From a virus: a DNA stretch of 64,000 bases. Location: positions 96,001 through 160,000 of IMG/VR virus record IMGVR_UViG_3300025133_000022; one strand, given 5' to 3'. The stretch's first letter is position 1. The number at the start of each line of letters is the position of its first letter. Both the position numbers and the translations under genes were made by a program. Below are positions 2,129 through 12,594 of the stretch, in pieces. Below the pieces are notes generated by a model. It was not told the DNA's origin. It worked only from the letters and a program-made list of their open reading frames with translations, and made no database searches.

Positions 2129-2452
2129 ATGACACATAGCATGTATATTAAGACTAAAAACTATTCCAAATGCAAAATCGTTTACGAAATCCACAGTCAC
2201 TACATCAAATTCGACATCCAAGAAACAACCAACGACACTTGGAAGACAGTCATCAAAGGCAGTATCAAGTGGGATGGCTGCAGCAACTTTAAATACAAAG
2301 ACACCACTCATTACTGCGGCTTCGCAGAAGCTCAACACTGGCTGGACATTCTACACTGCTGTTACTACATCTGTGAACAGGAGATGCCTGGCTGGGATAG
2401 TCTGGGCGAAGAATCCAGCTGGCCAGAAGGATACAAACGACATGACGCTTGA
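2129..2452 (+). CDS. hypothetical protein
   Basis: 107-aa ORF, coupled to the next ORF. Confidence 0.65.
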   Translation: MTHSMYIKTKNYSKCKIVYEIHSHYIKFDIQETTNDTWKTVIKGSIKWDGCSNFKYKDTTHYCGFAEAQHWLDILHCCYYICEQEMPGWDSLGEESSWPEGYKRHDA

Positions 2453-2732
2453 TGAATTGCAAATTGTAGCAGATACAGCATGGATTACGCTGGGACCCGA
2501 TGGCTTTGGAGTCGTAGTTGCTAACGAGCCTTTGCTTGATGGGTTTAGAGTTGAGGTGACTGGTTTCGAAGGAAGTACTATGTACCACTTCTCAGAAACA
2601 GTGTCACGATACAAAATAGAACAACGACGAGGGAACACTCGTTACAATTACATTCGAGAAACAGTAGCTCGCATTCGCAAAGCTATTACTGATCTACGAA
2701 CATCCCAGATCTTACAAAATCTGGGAGAATAA
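2442..2732 (+). CDS. hypothetical protein
   Basis: Start re-set to ATG 2442 (MTLDELQ...), which overlaps the previous gene and has an AAGGA RBS upstream. Confidence 0.65.
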   Translation: MTLDELQIVADTAWITLGPDGFGVVVANEPLLDGFRVEVTGFEGSTMYHFSETVSRYKIEQRRGNTRYNYIRETVARIRKAITDLRTSQILQNLGE

Positions 2733-2763
2733 TCGCCGGCGGGCAGTAAACGCAAGGAGAAGC

Positions 2764-3051
2764 ATGACTGAAGAGCAAATTGATATCATCATTCGTACGC
2801 TAACTTCCTCTCTTCCTGACATGAATTACACTGTCGCATTTGACCTTGGCGACCAAATGCTAGCTGTAGCTGTTTGTGCTAGACACAAAGACACTATCTA
2901 CATGGTCACAGACCAATCGTCACGCATGAGAATCAGAGCAGAACACAGCAACAGAATTCAAGCATATGTAAACCACCTTACACAGGTAGTAACAGAACTT
3001 TACAAAGAGCTGGCAGAACAAATTATACTAGAGGGCAGCCACAATGAGTAA
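2764..3051 (+). CDS. hypothetical protein
   Basis: AAGGAG RBS; 95 aa. Confidence 0.7.
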   Translation: MTEEQIDIIIRTLTSSLPDMNYTVAFDLGDQMLAVAVCARHKDTIYMVTDQSSRMRIRAEHSNRIQAYVNHLTQVVTELYKELAEQIILEGSHNE

Positions 3052-3274
3052 CTGGAACAACGACTCAACCAAAGACGAACTGCAAGCCGAACTTGTCCGA
3101 CTAGAAAGACTGCACGAACGAAACAGATCCAAGTACCTAGAACTGCAAGCCAAAGTTAAGAAATTACAAGCAGAAAACAAAGAACTCAAAACCAAACTAG
3201 GCAAAGAGCAAGACGCCAATCTCGATAAAAGCACCCTGCATTTTTCGGATCTGTTTGGAGGTTTTAAATTTTGA
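3044..3274 (+). CDS. small coiled-coil protein
   Basis: Heptad-like LQAELVRLERLHERN...LQAKVKKLQAENKELKTKL; overlaps its neighbours. Confidence 0.7.
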   Translation: MSNWNNDSTKDELQAELVRLERLHERNRSKYLELQAKVKKLQAENKELKTKLGKEQDANLDKSTLHFSDLFGGFKF

Positions 3275-4599
3275 GCAACTTCGTACACTTGCACATGCAC
3301 ACCGAATACAGCACACTCGATGGCATCAACAGGATTGAAACTCTGCCCGACCACATCATAAGCTTGGGTCAGAAAGCCGTGGCTATCACAGACCACGGCA
3401 ACATCAGCGGCAGCTACAAATTTGCCAAGAGCTGTAGAGCCAAGGGCATCAAGCCTATCATTGGCCTAGAAGCCTATTACACTCCACATGACGCAGCAGT
3501 GCGCGAACTAGACGATCTGGGAAAGAGGTACTATCACATGGTGCTCCTGGCCAAGAACGGAGTAGGCTTGAAGAACCTCCGATGGCTAAGCACCAAGGCG
3601 TTTACTCAGGGCTTCTACGCGAAGCCACGATTGGACGATCGCATCATTGCTGATCACTCAGAAGGCATCATTGCTACAAGCGCATGCCTGGGAAGTAGGA
3701 TCAGTCAGCTGATTCTAAACGACCGTAAGGTCGAAGCAGAAAAAATGCTACTGCACCACAATGCGATATTTAAAGACAGCTTCTTCATCGAAGTACAGTT
3801 ACACCCCATGGGTGAGCAACAGCTAGTCAACCAAGTGTTGTTAGACATTGCGAAGAGGCACAGTCTGCCGCTCATCCTTACAAACGACTGCCACTACACT
3901 CACGAGCAAGACAAACTGCTGCACGAAAAGGCACTATGCATGAGTACTAATGCCAAAATGAGTGATCCACCATGGGACCCTGAACGCAAAGCCAAGGGTC
4001 TTACTGGAAAGACCCGATTTAGTTTCGGGCCCATCGATGTACATGTAGCACACCATGACTGGATGTGGAAACATGCACAAGCTCAAGGAATTCCCTATGA
4101 AGCAATTAGTAACACTGCTGCAGTGGCAGACAGTATCCGTGATGATCAATACTTCATGGATATTCGTAACAGATATCCCCGCTATCAGCATGTTGACACT
4201 GGGGAAACTAGCTGGAACGCTTTAGAGTACTTAGCAAAAGAACTTCTTTGGAAAAAAATGAACGGTCAAGTACCAGAAGTCTATCGAAATCGCATGGATC
4301 ATGAACTTGGAATCATTAAAAAAATGGGGTTCTCTGACTATTTGCTTATTGTTCATCAATTTTTAGAAGGGGCTCGGAAAGAAGATGTCTTTATTGGTCC
4401 AGGTCGAGGTAGTGCTGCCGGAAGTCTAGTCAGCTACGCACTGGGTATCACCCAAGTGGATCCAATCAAATACGGACTTGTATTTGAACGTTGGCTTAAC
4501 TACGGTCGTGCTGCTCAGCCAATTTTATTTGACCAACACATGGTGCAGCAAATCAAGAGCATGACACCTGTAAAAGCGCCATGCTCTCATAGTCATTAA
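3271..4599 (+). CDS. dnaE: DNA polymerase III alpha (DnaE), N-terminal fragment: PHP domain plus start of palm
   Basis: TTG start after a GGAGG RBS. Motifs HLHMHTEYSTLDG, TDHGN, GLEAY, YHMVLLAKN, SACLG, TNDCHY, GPGRGSAAGSLVSYALGIT and FERWLNYGR. Stops 29 aa later, before PDIDID. Confidence 0.95.
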   Translation: MSNFVHLHMHTEYSTLDGINRIETLPDHIISLGQKAVAITDHGNISGSYKFAKSCRAKGIKPIIGLEAYYTPHDAAVRELDDLGKRYYHMVLLAKNGVGLKNLRWLSTKAFTQGFYAKPRLDDRIIADHSEGIIATSACLGSRISQLILNDRKVEAEKMLLHHNAIFKDSFFIEVQLHPMGEQQLVNQVLLDIAKRHSLPLILTNDCHYTHEQDKLLHEKALCMSTNAKMSDPPWDPERKAKGLTGKTRFSFGPIDVHVAHHDWMWKHAQAQGIPYEAISNTAAVADSIRDDQYFMDIRNRYPRYQHVDTGETSWNALEYLAKELLWKKMNGQVPEVYRNRMDHELGIIKKMGFSDYLLIVHQFLEGARKEDVFIGPGRGSAAGSLVSYALGITQVDPIKYGLVFERWLNYGRAAQPILFDQHMVQQIKSMTPVKAPCSHSH

Positions 4600-5318
4600 G
4601 TAGGTATGGCAACCCAGCCATCTCGTACAGTGAAAGTGACACTCTTTACATAGCCTGAATTGTCATGAAACATAACTCTTGCATCATTGGGAGCAGTTAT
4701 GCTTCCGATGCTTAAGCTCATTGTCTCCTGGCTTAATATATTCTCATCGGAATCAAGAAGGCATGCCATCACGGAAACTTCTGCTGCAGAATCTACATAC
4801 CAGTAGACTAGCAATGCAGAAGGCTCCGTGCTTTGTTCGTCATCCCCACCGGAGCCAACATTACCGACACCACTGGTAATCGAGGCTTCCCAGTCACCTC
4901 CACTGTGTTTGAAAGCCCAAGCGTTAACCCAGGTCGTGCTAAACTTTAAACCTATCCCAATGGCGGCATTAGACCATGTCCCAGTAATATCACTTAAATT
5001 CAATCTAGTGATGTACATAAACTGATCAGCATCCCAAGTGCCGTCAACACCTGGGTCAAGCTGCACGGCTAAACTTTGACTTGAAAGAACTGAGTGTGCT
5101 GTAGCGTTTGTGGTCAGGGTATTCGAAGTACCGAGACTGCTACTATCAAGTGCCCCTTGGGTATCGGTGATAGTGTTGCCAACAAGATCTCTGTTTGAAA
5201 GAGTGGCCGCTGGGCTTCCACCCCCGCCAGAAGCAGTAGTATCATTAAGAGCCTCTCCTGAGAGAGGCCCTCCACCAGTTACTGTAACTTGTACCTTACT
5301 ATTGGTTGGACCCGACAT
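4596..5318 (-). CDS. hypothetical Ser/Thr/Gly-rich, beta-rich protein (possibly virion-associated)
   Basis: 240-aa ORF, third of a tightly packed - strand trio inside the dnaE break. Confidence 0.75.
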   Translation of the reverse strand: MSGPTNSKVQVTVTGGGPLSGEALNDTTASGGGGSPAATLSNRDLVGNTITDTQGALDSSSLGTSNTLTTNATAHSVLSSQSLAVQLDPGVDGTWDADQFMYITRLNLSDITGTWSNAAIGIGLKFSTTWVNAWAFKHSGGDWEASITSGVGNVGSGGDDEQSTEPSALLVYWYVDSAAEVSVMACLLDSDENILSQETMSLSIGSITAPNDARVMFHDNSGYVKSVTFTVRDGWVAIPT

Positions 5319-5321
5319 GCA

Positions 5322-5729
5322 TCACCAACAAACGATAGTGATCGTACTGCCAGAACTCAGACTTAAGGCATCAATTTGCAAACTAGCAACATTTAAACCT
5401 TCTGCAGTCTCAAGAACAGTACTCCCAGTGCTTTGATAACTAGGAAAGCCACCAGCCCAAATCTCAATAATAGGGTTGTTGTAGATCCCATACATTTGAT
5501 CAGTCTTGCTAAAAGCTTCATCAGCTCGACGCTTCTTATGAATGCGTTGGAGATTGTTCAGCGTGTAGTCAATTGTGTCGGCAGCATCTGTCATGATGAA
5601 TTGTAGACGCCTTGCTGGGCGTCCAAGAACATTGGTGAAATCAATTTGATCACCAGCAGCAACTGCAGTAATCTCAGCACTTCGCTGAGAGCTTGGAATA
5701 GATTTGGAAACAGGCGTATAAGTTGCCAT
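5322..5729 (-). CDS. hypothetical protein (possibly virion-associated)
   Basis: 135 aa with a strong TAAGGAG RBS. Confidence 0.8.
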   Translation of the reverse strand: MATYTPVSKSIPSSQRSAEITAVAAGDQIDFTNVLGRPARRLQFIMTDAADTIDYTLNNLQRIHKKRRADEAFSKTDQMYGIYNNPIIEIWAGGFPSYQSTGSTVLETAEGLNVASLQIDALSLSSGSTITIVCW

Positions 5730-5731
5730 CG

Positions 5732-5749
5732 TAAAACTCCTTAAGGATT
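5732..5749. repeat. 18-nt dispersed repeat, copy 1 (stop codon plus RBS junction)
   Basis: TAAAACTCCTTAAGGATT is identical to 46491-46508 and contains the palindrome TCCTTAAGGA. Confidence 0.85.
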
Positions 5750-6235
5750 GTTAATGATTAGTGGTGCGGAATCATAATGCACATCAACAAAACCAACTGG
5801 AGTCCCAGTCATTTTCGCTGTTGCTTGCAAAAAGAAATAATCGCCAGCTTCAGTAAGCCGCGCATCTTCACTTGTAAATGAAAAATTGGCAAAACCGCCA
5901 TCGCCAGCACCACCTGCAAGAGTACAGGTAGCAATACGAACAAATGCAGCATTGCGAAAGCGATATATTTCAAGATCATACTGCCCACCACTGCCATCGC
6001 TCATTAAATGAAAGTGAATGCTAGACATACGAAGAGCACTATCGACTCCAACACGGCCATAATTCGCAGCAGCAGCCCAGCTAAAAGTATTTGGTTGCCC
6101 AAGGACCGAATCTTTATCAACAGGATCGTTAAACCATTCAACCCCAGGCTGATAGGCAAGGGCAGTCATACTAAAACGAAGCTCACCAATAGTGTTTCCG
6201 TCAATAGTAATTCCTGTCATATAGTCAACAGGCAT
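5741..6235 (-). CDS. hypothetical beta-sandwich-like protein (possibly virion-associated)
   Basis: 164 aa with a GGAG RBS. Alternating beta-strand pattern (SIHFHL, YDLEIYRF, DYFFLQA). Confidence 0.8.
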   Translation of the reverse strand: MPVDYMTGITIDGNTIGELRFSMTALAYQPGVEWFNDPVDKDSVLGQPNTFSWAAAANYGRVGVDSALRMSSIHFHLMSDGSGGQYDLEIYRFRNAAFVRIATCTLAGGAGDGGFANFSFTSEDARLTEAGDYFFLQATAKMTGTPVGFVDVHYDSAPLIINNP

Positions 6236-6243
6236 CGAAACTC

Positions 6244-6262
6244 CAAATTATATTTAATATTA
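6244..6262 (-). promoter_or_regulatory. putative -10-only/late-type promoter for the inverted three-gene cassette
   Basis: On the - strand, TAATATTAAATATAATTTG lies directly upstream of the GGAG RBS. It contains TATAAT and a TATAAATA-like TATTAAATA. No -35 was seen. Confidence 0.35.
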
Positions 6263-6295
6263 CCCACATCACCAACCGGGAGACCGAGCAAATCT

Positions 6296-7480
6296 ATGAA
6301 AAAACTAATTAACAAAATCAAAACCCACTATAACCAAAACCGATTGGCACTTGTCGATCAAGATTTTCTATCCTTTGAAGAAGATCTTAGCACAAATCAA
6401 GATCTAGAGCTAGTAGAACTAGCCCTAACACATAATCTCAAATTTGTAGAAAACCCAACCAATAGCATCATCTTGTACCTAACTGGTCTTACTGACCAGT
6501 TCGACAATGAGAAAGCTAGAGCTGACACGAGAGGTGGCTCTCCCCCTGACATTGACATCGACTTTGAAGCCCTTGGTAGAGACAAGGCGGTCGATTGGGT
6601 GGTTGAAGAGTGGGGGCGAAATCATGTTGCAAACATTATGACCCAAGGCACCTTTAAGCCCAAGAGTCTTACAAGAAGATTTTTCAAGATCACTGAGGGA
6701 GACCAAGAAGTCATGAGAGAAATCCTTCGAATGATCCCGCCCCCACACTTTGGCAAAGAACCAAAGTTAAAAGAAATCATTGAAGGTAACAAAGACAAGG
6801 GCTATGTAGCCCATCCAGAACTAGCTACTGCTCACAAGTACAAGGAATGGTATGAATTCACCAAGAAACTGGAAGGAATGGTTGCTAACTTTGGCATCCA
6901 CGCAGCTGGAATCGTTATCAGCGACTTCCCCATCCCAGACACCATTCCCTGCTGGAAAAACAGCAAGAGCGAATTCATTACCCAATACGACATGCACGAA
7001 GTTGAAGAACTAGGAAGCATCAAGTTTGACTTCCTGGTAATCAACAATCTAGACATCCTGAAAGAATGCGTACGACTTATTAAACTAAGACACAACATCG
7101 AATACGATATTTATAATGTGCCTGACGGAGATGAAAAGGCTTACGAACTCATGGCTCAAGGACTGCTAACCGGCGTCTTTCAAATGGAGACCAGTGGATC
7201 AGCCAAAAAACTGATCCAACGCATCAAGCCTACCAACTTAGAAGAACTTAGCGACATTAACGCATTGAATCGACCTGGACCAATGGAAGCAGGTCTAGAC
7301 GAAGCCTATGTAGTAAACAAGACCAATGGCTACGCTCCCAAGGACATGCCTCCTGCTCTTGCAGAAATTCTAAAAGGAACCTATTGGACTCTGGTGTATC
7401 AAGAGCAAATCATGCGACTGGTATCCGAACTGGCAGGATTCACGCTTCAAGAGGCAGATGACGTTAGACGAGCAATGGGT
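6296..7480 (+). CDS. dnaE: DnaE second gene, exon 1 (catalytic palm, thumb, part of fingers)
   Basis: ATG 6296 with GGGAG upstream. Motifs PPDIDIDF, GIHAAGIVIS, TQYDM, IKFDFL, GVFQME, ALNRPGP, LVYQEQIM and EADDVRRAMG. Confidence 0.93.
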
Positions 7481-7508
7481 TGACAACACTTTAGCATAGC
7501 GCTATGGT
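7480..7508 (+). promoter_or_regulatory. sigma70-type promoter for the intron endonuclease
   Basis: TTGACA (7480-7485), a 17-nt spacer, then TATGGT (7503-7508). Confidence 0.7.
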
Positions 7509-7526
7509 ACTTCATACAAGGAGTAC
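7507..7526 (+). promoter_or_regulatory. RBS-sequestering hairpin upstream of endonuclease ATG
   Basis: GTACTTC-ATACAA-GGAGTAC pairs over the GGAG Shine-Dalgarno. The ATG is at 7529. Confidence 0.65.
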
Positions 7527-7528
7527 TT

Positions 7529-8320
7529 ATGCAAACCAAAATCACAGATGAAAAGAAGCTAGAAATTGCTCTAGCTTACCAGCAGGGTCAAAGTACAATA
7601 GAGATTGCAAACAACTACGGCTGCTCGACTACCATAGTTTACAGAGCTCTGAAACTGCTTGAGACTCCTAGGAGAACTGGTGGCCATCAGCCACCAAACT
7701 TCAAAGATACTTACTTTGACCAGATCAACACAGAGGAAAAAGCCTACTTCCTAGGCTTAATCATCGCAGACGGAAGCGTATGTCAGCCCTCCAGGGGCGG
7801 TCAAAAAATTTTCCAGTTGGAACTCCTTGAGCAAGACAACAAGCTCATTGCCCAACTCTGCCAAGAACTCCAATACCCTCTGTCCAGGATTAAAACTTAC
7901 CAGCGAACAGGCAGATCAGCTACAAGCAAAGTCTCAATTACCTCAAACCAACTAGCTAAAAGCCTAGCAAAATACGGAGTGGTTGCAGACAAAGCCCCTT
8001 GGACTGAACTACCCACAATAGACGCAAGCCTGATGAGACATGCTCTTAGAGGACTGTACGATGGCGATGGAAGTATTGCCAAGTACAGACTCGTACTGAC
8101 AGCAGGCAACACAGTGATTCTAAACCAAGTGCGTGACCATCTGATCAGCACCTTAAGCCTGAATCCAAAAGCCATTAGAATCTACAAAACAGGAGAAAGA
8201 GCCTGGGCTCTTTCTATCAACAGAAAGCTGGAAAGACAATCTGTGATGAAGCACCTCTACCAAGATGCTTCTGTCGCTATGCAAAGAAAAGCCCGCTGGC
8301 TGGGCAACCAGTCAGAATAA
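7529..8320 (+). CDS. intron-encoded LAGLIDADG homing endonuclease with N-terminal HTH
   Basis: Two motifs, AYFLGLIIADGS and RHALRGLYDGDGS. N-terminal HTH-like YQQGQSTIEIANNYGCSTTIVYRAL. Confidence 0.92.
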   Translation: MQTKITDEKKLEIALAYQQGQSTIEIANNYGCSTTIVYRALKLLETPRRTGGHQPPNFKDTYFDQINTEEKAYFLGLIIADGSVCQPSRGGQKIFQLELLEQDNKLIAQLCQELQYPLSRIKTYQRTGRSATSKVSITSNQLAKSLAKYGVVADKAPWTELPTIDASLMRHALRGLYDGDGSIAKYRLVLTAGNTVILNQVRDHLISTLSLNPKAIRIYKTGERAWALSINRKLERQSVMKHLYQDASVAMQRKARWLGNQSE

Positions 8321-8545
8321 CCATTCCGTGAATTCAGAGAAAGCCCAGAGGTGGGTAACCCTGAGCCAAGCTGTAGAGGAATCTACAGAAGGTGCAACGA
8401 CTAGTGAATACAATCCAGAACGGATTATGAATCACCACGAGCGCGGAACATCCCAAGCGGATGAAGATATAGTCTGAGCTACGCCAATAGCCTAAAAAGA
8501 AAGCGTAGAAGCTCAGGATAAAGAGCCTGAGCGATAACAACACTG

Positions 8546-9907
8546 AAAAAGAAAGTCTCCGTGCTGGAGAAGTACAGAGACCCCTTCATTAAAGGCTGTG
8601 TAGACCACAATATCAATAAGCAATATGCAGAAACTCTTTGGGACGACACTCTACTTGGTTTTGCTAACTATTGCTTTAACAAGTCCCACAGTCTGGCATA
8701 CAGCGTCATCACCTACCTTTGCGCTTTTTTCAAAGCACACTACCCTACTGAGTTCTTCACCTCGTTGATGACTATCCGATCTCAGGTGATGCAACCAAAA
8801 CTATGGGCGCAGAAAGCGCCCCAGTTCGTTAGCGAGGCCAAGAAGATGGGAGTACGTGTTCACGCACCCTACATCCAGAAGTCCAAACTTGGCTTCACCA
8901 TTGAAGACGATGAAATCTACTTTGGTCTCAATGCCATTAAGCAAGTAGGAGTAACAGCTTGCCGAAGCATTATTGCTGCAAGAAAGCGGGGAAACTTTAA
9001 AGACATCTGGGACTTTTTAGCTCGAGTCAACAGACAGAAAGTTACCACCAGAACCTTTGAGGCCCTGGTAAGAGCGGGTGCGTTCGACCGCATGGGTTAC
9101 CTACGGTCAGAACTACTCGAAAAGACTAAAGACATCTATTCATTCTTCAACAACAACATTGAATATGAAGAAAGAATCCAAAATCATAAAATTAGAGCAG
9201 CTGAAAATCAAAAAAAAGATGCACGCCGTACAGAAATTCAAAAAGAAATCAAGAATGCTAAAACACTTATCAAGCAAATGAAAAAAGAAAAGCTGAATGT
9301 GCCTGCATTTCTACAACATGCTGCCGACTATGACAAAAGATTAAGAAACGTAAGACAACAGATTCGTGCAACCGGGTTAAAGCCAGAAGAAACATTGTCA
9401 GGAAAAGACCTACAAGAGTATAACGAATCTTTGACTCTTCGAAAAAAACCAGAACTCAAGTTGAAAGACAAACCAATTCAGCCAGAGCTTACTAGAGTTA
9501 GAGCTGTAAAGATAAGCGTCGCAGAATTAATGGAACAAGCAGATTTCATTGGATGCTATCTTCATGACCATCCAGCTCCCGTCTTGTATCCAGATACTAC
9601 CCGCATTGCCAACGCACAACAAGGTGACTACCTAGGCATGGCAGGGCAAATTACCAACTGGAAGCAAATCAAAACCAGAAAGGGAGATGACATGGCTTTC
9701 GCCCAGATGGGCGACGGTACTGGTCTCGCAGAACTAATAATCTTTCCATATGTGTACAAAAGACTCAAAGCCAGTGGTAAACTACCAGAGCCAAGAGATA
9801 TTGTTCGGGTTAGATGTGAAGTAGAAACAGCTGGAAACGAAGATAGCGAAGAAAATGGTGAAATTAAAGTCATCGTTAAAGATATCGAAGTCTACCAGTC
9901 CAAATAG
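8546..9907 (+). CDS. dnaE: DnaE second gene, exon 2 (fingers, HhH, OB fold)
   Basis: Begins KKKVSVLEKY after the splice. Motifs FANYCFNKSHSLAY, YPTEFF, IYFGLNAIKQVG, FEALVRAGAFD, FIGCYLHDHP and OB-fold KTRKGDDMAF. Confidence 0.93.
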   Translation, partial: KKKVSVLEKYRDPFIKGCVDHNINKQYAETLWDDTLLGFANYCFNKSHSLAYSVITYLCAFFKAHYPTEFFTSLMTIRSQVMQPKLWAQKAPQFVSEAKKMGVRVHAPYIQKSKLGFTIEDDEIYFGLNAIKQVGVTACRSIIAARKRGNFKDIWDFLARVNRQKVTTRTFEALVRAGAFDRMGYLRSELLEKTKDIYSFFNNNIEYEERIQNHKIRAAENQKKDARRTEIQKEIKNAKTLIKQMKKEKLNVPAFLQHAADYDKRLRNVRQQIRATGLKPEETLSGKDLQEYNESLTLRKKPELKLKDKPIQPELTRVRAVKISVAELMEQADFIGCYLHDHPAPVLYPDTTRIANAQQGDYLGMAGQITNWKQIKTRKGDDMAFAQMGDGTGLAELIIFPYVYKRLKASGKLPEPRDIVRVRCEVETAGNEDSEENGEIKVIVKDIEVYQSK

Positions 9908-11027: not shown

Positions 11028-11396
11028 ATGAGTAGAATTCTAGGACCTGATGGACAGCCTGTCAGGCCTCAACGACAAATTCCAGATGAAGTAATTATAC
11101 ATCATCTAGGAGACCATGATGGACGACTTAACGCACTAGCAGCCCAGTCTGTACATATGGGAATCATGGTAGAATATCTGGTTGAACAACTAGGTACTCT
11201 GTTACCAAATTTCGATCTTGACCCAGAAGAATTTGCAGAGTTTCGTAAACGCAGATTTGAAGAAATGCAAAACGAAGCAAAAGCAATTGAAGAAGCTCGA
11301 GCCAAAGCCGTTGCAGAGCAGGCTCAGAACCAAGCAGATTTTCCAGACTTGGATCTAGACGAAATTGATGACGGAGATATTAAACCTAATGGGTGA
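11028..11396 (+). CDS. hypothetical protein with acidic C-terminus
   Basis: AGGAG RBS; ATG 11028 preferred over GTG 11022. Confidence 0.75.
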   Translation: MSRILGPDGQPVRPQRQIPDEVIIHHLGDHDGRLNALAAQSVHMGIMVEYLVEQLGTLLPNFDLDPEEFAEFRKRRFEEMQNEAKAIEEARAKAVAEQAQNQADFPDLDLDEIDDGDIKPNG

Positions 11397-12594
11397 CTGG
11401 GCTTTCGTAGAGCATGCCACCAAGCAGCTCATGCGAGGACGCTCAGGTGATTCAAAAGGACCAACCTTCTGGCCTTCAGAGGCCAGTGCAACCTACGTAA
11501 ATGATGAAGGGAAAGAAATAACTGTTGGGAAATGCCGAAGAGCAATATTCTTCAGGTATCTTATTGACAGTTATAAATTCTTTGAAAAGTACAAAATCTG
11601 GCGACCTCTAGTTGAGAAACTTAAGAAGGAGTCAAAACCTGTAGACCGCTACATGCTATGGATCTGGGCAGCCGGCAACCAAGCTGAAGACTTCCTAATT
11701 GAACAAGCAAAGAAAAGCGGCATCTACGTAGACGAACAAGTCCCAGTGTATATCAAGTCCCACAGAGTATCAGGTAAGAAAGACATTGAAGTTCACAACC
11801 CAGAGACAAGTAAGCTAAGTATCGTAGAGGCCAAGAGCGTCTACGGCTTTGGAGCTAACACAGTACTCGGAACTGAATCCCAAAGAAGGCGAGGATTCAT
11901 GGGTGAACCAAGAGAAAGCAACCTGATGCAGATTGCTCTCTATCATTGGTGGTCCGCCAGTTTGGATGCCGCCTATGAAGAGAGTCGTCTAGTGTACATC
12001 GCAAGAGATACAGGTAGGTATGCAGAATATCTAGTACGTACCATCGATGAAGACGGTACAATTCACATTGAATATAGACCCTGGCACCCAAACAAGGGAG
12101 CATGGACACGAGTAGCATTCACCATCAATCATTTACTAGATAGCTATGAAGCCATCCAGTTAGCTGTTGATAGTGGGCGAATTCCACCAAGGGACTTTGA
12201 CATATCGTGGAGTAAAGAACGCTTAGATCAAACCTTCAAAGCTGGAAAACTAAGTAAAGGTGAAGCAGACAAGTATGTAAAAATCGAGGCACGCAAGGCT
12301 GAGAACGCCTGGATTGCCGAGATGCAAAACCTTGACGAAGATGACCATATGATCACCGCAGCAGAAGAACGTCCAGATATCTTGCTGGCACCAGTCACCA
12401 AGCAACTGGCTAAGTTTCGTGCACATGAAGACATGGGGGCAAGTTACAACAAAGATAAAGCAAAACTTGTTAAAATGCTTCGAGCTGTCAAACCTAAAAA
12501 AGAACTGATGCCTATTGAAAAGGGTGATTGGCAGTGCAGGTTCTGCAAGTTTTCACCAACTTGCTACTTTGATGAAAATTCTGAGGAAAAATAA
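11389..12594 (+). CDS. Cas4/RecB-like PD-(D/E)XK exonuclease with Fe-S cysteines
   Basis: WPSEAS...CRRAIFF, GNQAED, SGKKDIEV, IVEAKS, QIALY and C-terminal CRFCKFSPTC. Start could be 11365-11389. Confidence 0.8.
   Translation: MGDWAFVEHATKQLMRGRSGDSKGPTFWPSEASATYVNDEGKEITVGKCRRAIFFRYLIDSYKFFEKYKIWRPLVEKLKKESKPVDRYMLWIWAAGNQAEDFLIEQAKKSGIYVDEQVPVYIKSHRVSGKKDIEVHNPETSKLSIVEAKSVYGFGANTVLGTESQRRRGFMGEPRESNLMQIALYHWWSASLDAAYEESRLVYIARDTGRYAEYLVRTIDEDGTIHIEYRPWHPNKGAWTRVAFTINHLLDSYEAIQLAVDSGRIPPRDFDISWSKERLDQTFKAGKLSKGEADKYVKIEARKAENAWIAEMQNLDEDDHMITAAEERPDILLAPVTKQLAKFRAHEDMGASYNKDKAKLVKMLRAVKPKKELMPIEKGDWQCRFCKFSPTCYFDENSEEK

Follow-up and report, generated by a model that had tools for sequence, protein, structure and literature searches.

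How does a phage copy its DNA when the gene for its only DNA polymerase is broken within the palm domain? The question is raised by dnaE, the gene for a C-family polymerase, in an uncultured marine phage known from the 192.5-kb IMG/VR record IMGVR_UViG_3300025133_000022 (CheckV completeness 100%). We analyzed bases 96001-160000 of this record, a stretch of 64,000 nucleotides called the window here, and all positions refer to the window unless stated otherwise. Its dnaE consists of three plus-strand open reading frames (ORFs), F1, F2 and F3, which span 3271-9907 and together make up one complete C-family polymerase. The palm is broken between the GRGS and FERWLN motifs, found in F1, and the PDIDID motif, found in F2, and the two genes lie 1.7 kb apart with opposite-strand genes in the gap.

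Our answer, which we hold with good confidence, is that the replicative polymerase of this phage is made as two polypeptides that are never joined and pair as a heterodimer without a covalent bond, the two chains contributing to a single active site. The N-subunit (442 amino acids, from F1) would contribute the PHP domain for proofreading and, with the GRGS and FER motifs, the half of the palm that binds the nucleotide. The C-subunit (848 amino acids, from F2 and F3), made after a group I intron splices from the mRNA, would supply the three catalytic aspartates, the fingers, the thumb and beta-binding region, the HhH motif and the OB fold. The subunits would then associate non-covalently, with an active site spanning their interface, and docking would probably be aided by a clade-specific tail on F1 and an 80-amino-acid leader on F2. 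Fission may have come about by tandem partial duplication and complementary decay, F1 keeping GRGS/FER and the C-subunit the aspartates. The gap between the genes now serves as a cargo site for small genes. We favor the heterodimer because a very large clade has kept the break together with its tail and leader, because selection acts on the tail and the leader at the protein level, because the halves overlap, and because no other polymerase is encoded. From these observations we infer a physical association and a composite active site, as well as the role and the origin of the tail and the leader.

The polymerase gene and its intron

Profile searches across the 192.5-kb genome found no PolA, no PolB (PF00136) and no second dnaE, contiguous or otherwise, and the split DnaE is the sole DNA polymerase of the phage. 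The three ORFs match consecutive parts of the DNA polymerase family phrog_405 (F1 positions 41-440, F2 441-745 and F3 753-1054). A preliminary description, made from the letters of the window, had recognized F1 and F2 and placed the end of the feature at 7483; the gene in fact runs on to 9907 past a group I intron, and there are three ORFs rather than two. Besides this intron between F2 and F3, that description did not notice that the leader may be a duplicate, nor that a palm split of a minimal Pol III alpha had been published; both points are discussed below. The parts of the gene are as follows.

3271-4599, plus strand: dnaE-N (F1), TTG start, 442 amino acids, with PF02811 and PF07733 (Pfam, translation)
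4510-4596, plus strand: tail of F1, 29 amino acids ending PCSHSH, followed by the stop codon at 4597-4599
6296-7480, plus strand: dnaE-C exon 1 (F2), ATG start, 395 amino acids ending RRAMG, with PF07733 (profile positions 97-259) and PF17657
6296-6535, plus strand: leader of F2, 80 amino acids, acidic and helical, preceding GSPPDIDIDF
7481-8545, plus strand: group I intron, 1065 nucleotides, RF00028
7529-8320, plus strand: LAGLIDADG homing endonuclease gene within the intron, 263 amino acids, PF14528 and PF14527, phrog_4645 (E 9e-41)
8546-9907, plus strand: dnaE-C exon 2 (F3), 453 amino acids, with PF14579 (HHH_6) and PF01336 (OB)

F1 combines a PHP exonuclease domain (PF02811, residues 6-178, E 1e-44) with the first half of the palm (PF07733, profile positions 3-102), which carries GPGRGSAAGS and FERWLNYGR. 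In an alignment of nine sequences, H6, H8, D17, H42, E67, H89, C139, D206 and H208 of the PHP domain are invariant, and we take these nine positions to be metal ligands; GPGRGSAAGS is likewise invariant among the aligned F1 homologues. Comparison with T. aquaticus Pol III alpha paired F1 with residues 6-240 and 380-464 of that enzyme, F1 residues 335-419 corresponding by sequence to T. aquaticus 380-464. The intact PHP motifs, GRGSAAGS, FERWLNYGR, the 29-residue tail and the stop reported in the preliminary description were all recovered at their positions by Pfam and translation, and translation and alignment bore out the 80-residue leader ahead of GSPPDIDIDF.

After the leader, F2 holds the catalytic aspartates (in PDIDID, an invariant motif among the aligned homologues), the remaining palm and the fingers, and F3 holds the FNKSH region, HhH, a coiled insert and the OB fold. 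In the C-subunit, D85, D87, D89 and D245 (in KFDFL) are invariant among 103 sequences. The sequence separating F2 from F3 matches the full RF00028 model (1-253) with 62.9 bits (E 1.6e-14, against a gathering score of 50); its catalytic core lies at 8257-8493, and the guide GCCCG at 8291-8295 reads as able to pair with UGGGU of the exon. The 5′ exon ends GGU at 7480, the intron runs from UGAC to CACUG with its last base, G, at 8545, and the 3′ exon opens AAAAAGAAAGTC at 8546, so that the TGA at 7481-7483 is the first codon of the intron and not the end of the gene. Joining the exons restores the frame (RRAMG followed directly by KKKVSVLEKYR), as in P0244, an uninterrupted C-subunit homologue, and in seven intron-less relatives, which read RRAMG-KK(K/D)xx-VL across the site. 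The spliced C-subunit would have 848 amino acids, compared with 849 in P0244, which is 88% identical over exon 1. On this evidence the F2/F3 break is an ordinary group I intron for which self-splicing is predicted. Its endonuclease ORF lies between the 5′ splice site and the guide sequence and has its own ribosome-binding site, AAGGAG.

Further insertions were seen in the relatives used for comparison, which comprise nine split loci, eight of them from IMG/VR at 55-64% identity (L003-L010) and the ninth, L023, the closest at 86%. A second group I intron with a LAGLIDADG gene occupies 10555-11588 of L003 (RF00028, 89.8 bits, 11322-11537), inserted in the catalytic motif of the C-subunit gene between PPD and IDID. 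Insertions of 0.9-5.5 kb lie about 40 residues into the F3 region of relatives (L003 12727-13665, L006 11075-16657 and L007 11053-14252), and the one in L003 has a LAGLIDADG-like match; their position is at or near FNKSH, where the split intein of cyanobacteria is found. Elsewhere in the genome of the phage itself, outside the window, C1:79556-79738 gave a second, weaker RF00028 match, whose 45.3 bits fall short of the gathering score (50).

The break within the palm

All nine split loci share the break, as F1 stops soon after FERFLNxGR in each of them, and a homologous leader stands at the restart in all eight that have sequence past the gap. Counted from the stop codon of F1, the frame or gene of F2 starts about 0.33 to 2.9 kb further on among them; in L006, F1 and F2 are in the same frame, interrupted by stops. 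A wider search for homologues with the same break, which the preliminary description had suggested, drew on protein clusters from a collection of 5.8 billion proteins, and the near-length set for F1 (stand-alone proteins of 353-762 amino acids) consisted of the best 120 matches listed. At least 118 stand-alone N-subunit clusters (415-508 amino acids, 56-86% identical) show FERFLNxGR and then a tail, and about 70 C-subunit clusters lacking PHP (~780-876 amino acids, 41-88% identical) cover 97-100% of F2, including the leader.

Longer F1 matches near 60% identity are exclusively intein-bearing N-subunits (~800-817 amino acids, no finger domain), and every single-chain DnaE among the F1 matches is at most 43% identical. 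Beyond the C-subunit clusters, the F2 matches are single-chain DnaEs of at most 38% identity, which leave the leader uncovered. Contiguous genes were found in the more distant loci L011-L013 (38% identical), where dnaE reads FERFLNAARTDAMVDVDLDF, and the phage collection held no cultured close relative above 41% identity. The distribution of the break over these sequences indicates that it is old and clade-wide.

Both the tail and the leader appear to be selected as protein. The invariant leader residues (R, D, D, L, E, K, N, P, N, S, I, L, F, R and G) and those at the start of the tail are each written with two to five synonymous codons, and the switches include CGN/AGR, AGY/TCN and CTN/TTR. 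Such variation at invariant residues points to selection on the protein and not on the RNA, which in turn argues against an intron at the F1/F2 break. Moreover, when compared with the contiguous gp55 of Streptomyces phage Zemlya, F1 corresponds to residues 1-414, through FERFLNPERVSMP, and residues 53-395 of F2 correspond to 378-732. F1 and F2 therefore overlap on Zemlya gp55, and there is no hole between them for a joining reaction to fill.

Tail, leader and competing explanations

The tail of F1 begins with a conserved [AGS][AGS]xP-(I/L)(I/L)F-xxx-M, which is probably followed by a helix and then by a Cys/His-rich end. Tails have a median length of 30 amino acids, the shortest among homologues having 16, and 83 of 118 N-subunit tails contain at least three Cys or His in their final 15 residues. 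Endings such as PCSHSH and CTHKHKCSCSH place a Cys/His cluster in most N-subunits, and their composition suggests a metal-binding knuckle; in the leader, no Cys or His was seen to be conserved that could partner it. The leader is acidic, with a median net charge of -5, and the tail is rich in His and Cys, which hints at docking through electrostatics or a metal. Comparison of the tail with the catalytic-strand region gave no significant result. In six other N-subunits (P0094 and P0123-P0127, 762-817 amino acids), an intein with a LAGLIDADG domain lies within the protein, and the usual tail is still terminal.

In BLAST and MAFFT alignments, the match of F2 to single-chain enzymes runs on into the leader, where NPxNS-IILY-xxGLTD stands against GSAAGS-LVAY-xLGITD of those enzymes. 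A model of the P0244 C-subunit, folded from a 103-sequence alignment, has a mean predicted local distance difference test score (pLDDT) of 91, and its leader is confidently helical: over residues 1-70, the means of 10-residue blocks lie at 82-94. Structural alignment of this model (Z 18-23) starts at model residue 14-26 and continues up to the catalytic strand; the matched starts are E. coli alpha 316-325, M. tuberculosis DnaE1 336, T. aquaticus 386 and PolC 855, that is, 60-75 residues ahead of the catalytic aspartates in the solved chains, the structure search giving the first and last aligned residue of each range only. In the P0244 model, the leader thus appears to take the place due to the end of F1, at the entry to the palm. 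Folding F2 from seven sequences of the clade alone gave a poor model (pLDDT 56) in which only the leader was confident, and it had the same helices. We lean slightly towards the view that the leader is a decayed duplicate of the palm segment that ends F1. A duplicate of this kind could not hold the palm entry once F1 docks, and if the duplication holds, the leader may instead serve as a clasp or a placeholder.

Several observations weigh against this account. The alignment behind the P0244 model held single-chain DnaEs across the leader and may have steered the model, and a leader at the palm entry would compete with the F1 segment, which leaves the assembled geometry uncertain. No DnaE profile was matched by the leaders alone in Pfam or PHROGs, and hidden Markov models built from segments of contiguous DnaEs and run against the leaders in both directions scored no higher than shuffled sequences. 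No match was found when the F2 alignment was compared with the F1 alignment by hhalign, and the sole hhalign match in the right register covered 14 columns (P 0.004), which is marginal for duplication. Since the gap genes lie on the opposite strand, transcription of the C-subunit gene must begin at a promoter of its own; the one promoter-like site, at 6225-6254, is what chance alone would give. Terminator-like sites in the gap are somewhat more frequent than in shuffled sequence, with none at the F1 stop. The preliminary description had F2 restart at 6296 with its own ribosome-binding site; the ATG stands, but the upstream signal is weak, a GGGAG about 14 nucleotides away.

The placement of the leader in the model also bears on a different reading, in which the C-subunit is a self-sufficient polymerase with the leader as its palm entry, and F1 acts alone as a PHP exonuclease or proofreader, its half-palm being only a docking remnant. 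The fold model does put the leader at the palm entry of solved Pol III alpha, the leader residues N53, P54, N56, S57 and R75 are conserved, and proofreading by a subunit apart from the polymerase is normal, as with E. coli epsilon. Nevertheless, the placement may be driven by the alignment, and the leader has neither GRGS nor FER, the motifs that contact the incoming dNTP in ternary complexes of Pol III alpha. Both motifs are invariant in more than 100 F1 clusters at 56-86% identity, which is hard to square with a remnant, and we regard this explanation as unlikely. Alternatively, the halves could be linked covalently by the tail and the leader, acting as a split intein of cryptic or atypical form or as some other protein ligation device. 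Some atypical split inteins do have short N-parts, inteins occur elsewhere in N-subunits of the clade (P0094, P0123-P0127), and split inteins with a free-standing gene between their halves are known from phage-like dnaE loci (PMC2677866). However, intein and Hint families of Pfam matched neither F1 nor F2 nor any of six isolated leaders at E values up to 10, although the same library does detect the inteins in P0094 and P0123-P0127; on this point the preliminary description, which called the locus intein-free, was right. The first residue of the tail is A, G or S, giving no conserved nucleophile, and the leader ends in GG before S without an Asn at the junction. In addition, the tail and the leader together have only about 110 amino acids, with tails down to 16, and linker residues are kept in both halves, so that excision would give no normal junction. 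We consider a ligation device very improbable.

Rejoining at the level of RNA or DNA, through an undetected intron, trans-splicing, translational bypass or DNA excision, is a little less probable again. It could appeal to the group I intron 1 kb downstream in the same gene and to the L003 intron between PD and IDID, but no Rfam family matched the gaps of four relatives (L003, L006, L007 and L023) or that of the window, where positions 4400-6650 searched at E values up to 10 returned a chance snoRNA-like match (E 6.9) and nothing else; some introns do escape Rfam models. The protein-level selection seen in the tail and the leader speaks against it too, as do the unrelated gap contents of different sub-clades and the lack of a recombinase gene in the gap. 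As for a pseudogene or a misassembly after a recent insertion, an essential gene interrupted by 1.7 kb of opposite-strand ORFs would invite that suspicion, as would the equivalent region of the cultured phage phiST (see below), which has no coding sequence (CDS) annotation in GenBank. Yet assemblies made independently from different samples show this break many times over, each half is complete and conserved, and the phage encodes no other polymerase to fall back on; we judge this the least probable explanation of all, in agreement with the preliminary description, which had argued against a pseudogene. That description had left the choice between a heterodimer and an enzyme rejoined by an unrecognized mechanism. 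The clade-wide break and the coding selection support the heterodimer, whereas rejoining loses ground, with no Hint profile match, no conserved splice nucleophile or Asn, and no match to an intron model in the gap.

The gap genes and related systems

The three opposite-strand genes that had been described in the gap are all present.

4596-5318, minus strand: ORF A, 240 amino acids, rich in Gly, Ser and Thr
5322-5729, minus strand: ORF B, 135 amino acids, member of a family of ~120-137 amino acids
5741-6235, minus strand: ORF C, 164 amino acids, with a homologue in the L003 gap

None of the three belongs to a family of Pfam, PHROG, NCBIfam or PADLOC or has a paralogue in the genome, and with the same four resources no nuclease or recombinase gene was recognized in the gap. 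Their neighbors in a protein atlas are viral hypothetical proteins, and ORF B falls only into viral hypothetical clusters there. The model of ORF C suggests a beta-sandwich fold, and no counterpart of ORF A was found in the gaps of relatives. The ORF B family occurs in the dnaE gap of 6 of 10 loci, always on the minus strand, with the following members outside the window.

9639-10052 of L023, minus strand: ORF B family gene, 82% identical to ORF B
9797-10207 of L003, minus strand: ORF B family gene, matched by ORF B
9364-9753 of L007, minus strand: ORF B family gene, matched by ORF B
9293-9664 of L005, minus strand: ORF B family gene, matched by ORF B
9404-9766 of L006, minus strand: ORF B family gene, tied to the family only through the L007 gene

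A member of this family is the sole gene of the three shortest gaps, and the family may represent the original insert or be functionally tied to the polymerase. Otherwise the gene sets vary: the L023 gap encodes proteins of 81, 137 and 709 amino acids, the contig of P0019 has four genes in its gap, and the gaps of L008-L010 hold unrelated plus-strand ORFs. The opposite-strand genes of the gap are variable cargo. Our fullest account adds to the clade-wide two-chain active site a duplication and decay of about 80 amino acids of the palm, a clasp or placeholder, formed by the leader and the tail, that governs assembly, and a gap that serves as a conserved landing site, usually for an antisense gene of about 130 amino acids, possibly linked to the polymerase; taken as a whole it is tentative, and we would sooner expect one of its parts to fail than all of them to hold.

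Around dnaE lies a conserved replication block (1036-2022 and flanks in the window; 1872-7407 in L023). Its order is a RecA-like gene, a large gene of no named family, a rIIB-like gene, an ATP-dependent DNA ligase gene, two genes for proteins of 96 amino acids, dnaE-N, the gap, dnaE-C and a metallophosphatase gene, the last presumably of the kind expected for Mre11/SbcD.

If the heterodimer is real, the stretch between FERFLNxxR and PDxDxD is a natural permissive split point of DnaE, which could be used in engineering split or conditional polymerases. The locus would also be a clean example of gene fission through duplication and decay, and of a replication gene that stably hosts cargo genes and introns across a phage clade. 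The split matters for annotation as well, as the halves are labeled 'DNA polymerase III alpha' or 'PolC', or left without a name. Metagenomes contain many examples of the arrangement, to which the window adds a further one, thoroughly documented and bearing an intron.

Among published systems, the nearest is the minimal Pol III alpha of group 2.2 jumbo phages, which is split into an N-terminal NTP-binding protein and a C-terminal protein that binds Mg and the template, and which is predicted to reconstitute one enzyme without an intein (Iyer et al. 2021, PMC7824862). The dnaE of the window is likewise cut between its NTP-binding and Mg-binding halves. The minimal enzyme, however, is a bare core with neither PHP nor the remaining domains, its two genes lie far apart, and it occurs next to a family B polymerase (PMC7824862), whereas the DnaE described here is full-length from PHP to OB, comes from neighboring genes on either side of a cargo gap and is the sole polymerase. 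In its domains, their order and its motifs it resembles the single-chain DnaEs of T. aquaticus (2HPI/3E0D), M. tuberculosis (5LEW/7PU7) and E. coli (2HNH/5FKU), and the P0244 fold matches 5LEW, 2HPI and 2HNH with Z 21-23. Unlike these, it consists of two chains rather than one; the cut falls after FERFLNxxR and ahead of PDxDxD, and the two sides carry extensions, the tail and the 80-residue leader.

Other polymerase genes are broken elsewhere and mended. Cyanobacterial DnaE is rejoined through a split intein at FNKSH (Wu et al. 1998). Metagenomic 'fractured genes' include a dnaE in two genes with a free-standing gene between them, joined by a split intein (Dassa et al. 2009, PMC2677866). The split inteins of both kinds have the full set of Hint motifs. 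In contrast to both, the break in the window is at another site, has no intein motifs and has no detected nuclease in its gap. Non-covalent assembly of an essential enzyme from two separately encoded proteins is familiar from the split gp43 (family B) of T4-related phages, from nrdA of Aeh1, which is split by mobE, from the T4 topoisomerase genes 39/60 and from the split PolB of Methanothermobacter; a split family B polymerase is also reported from chimalliviruses (bioRxiv 10.64898/2026.09.30.755723). Phage gene breaks are often linked to mobile DNA, but unlike the Aeh1 nrdA/mobE type, the F1/F2 break of the window has no recognizable homing endonuclease, although a novel nuclease among the three gap ORFs is conceivable. 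A further difference is that the C-half of the window's polymerase may bear a degenerate version of the closing segment of its N-half. Our literature search turned up no account of a phage DnaE that is full-length, split and free of inteins, and a 2026 survey of bacterial polymerases does not treat such a split; to our knowledge, no C-family replicative polymerase has been shown to consist of two chains with a shared active site.

A cultured phage nevertheless carries the same cut. In the marine Cellulophaga phage phiST (HQ634192), dnaE (2319-5922) is divided at the same point: ORF1 ends with FERFLNSGR and a tail of 57 amino acids (stop 3899), and ORF2, whose ATG at 3901 follows 1 nucleotide after the stop, reaches PDIDTDF after 19 amino acids. 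The phiST record has no CDS at dnaE, and one number is missing from its series of locus tags. Two more phages, Rossellomorea phage phiT1 and Bacillus phage G, were set aside as further cases, their breaks being at other places. The phiST proteins are 24-30% identical to those of the window, with no genes between the halves and a short, unrelated leader, so that the two phages have in common the position of the break, after FERFLN and before the catalytic aspartates, and differ in what surrounds it.

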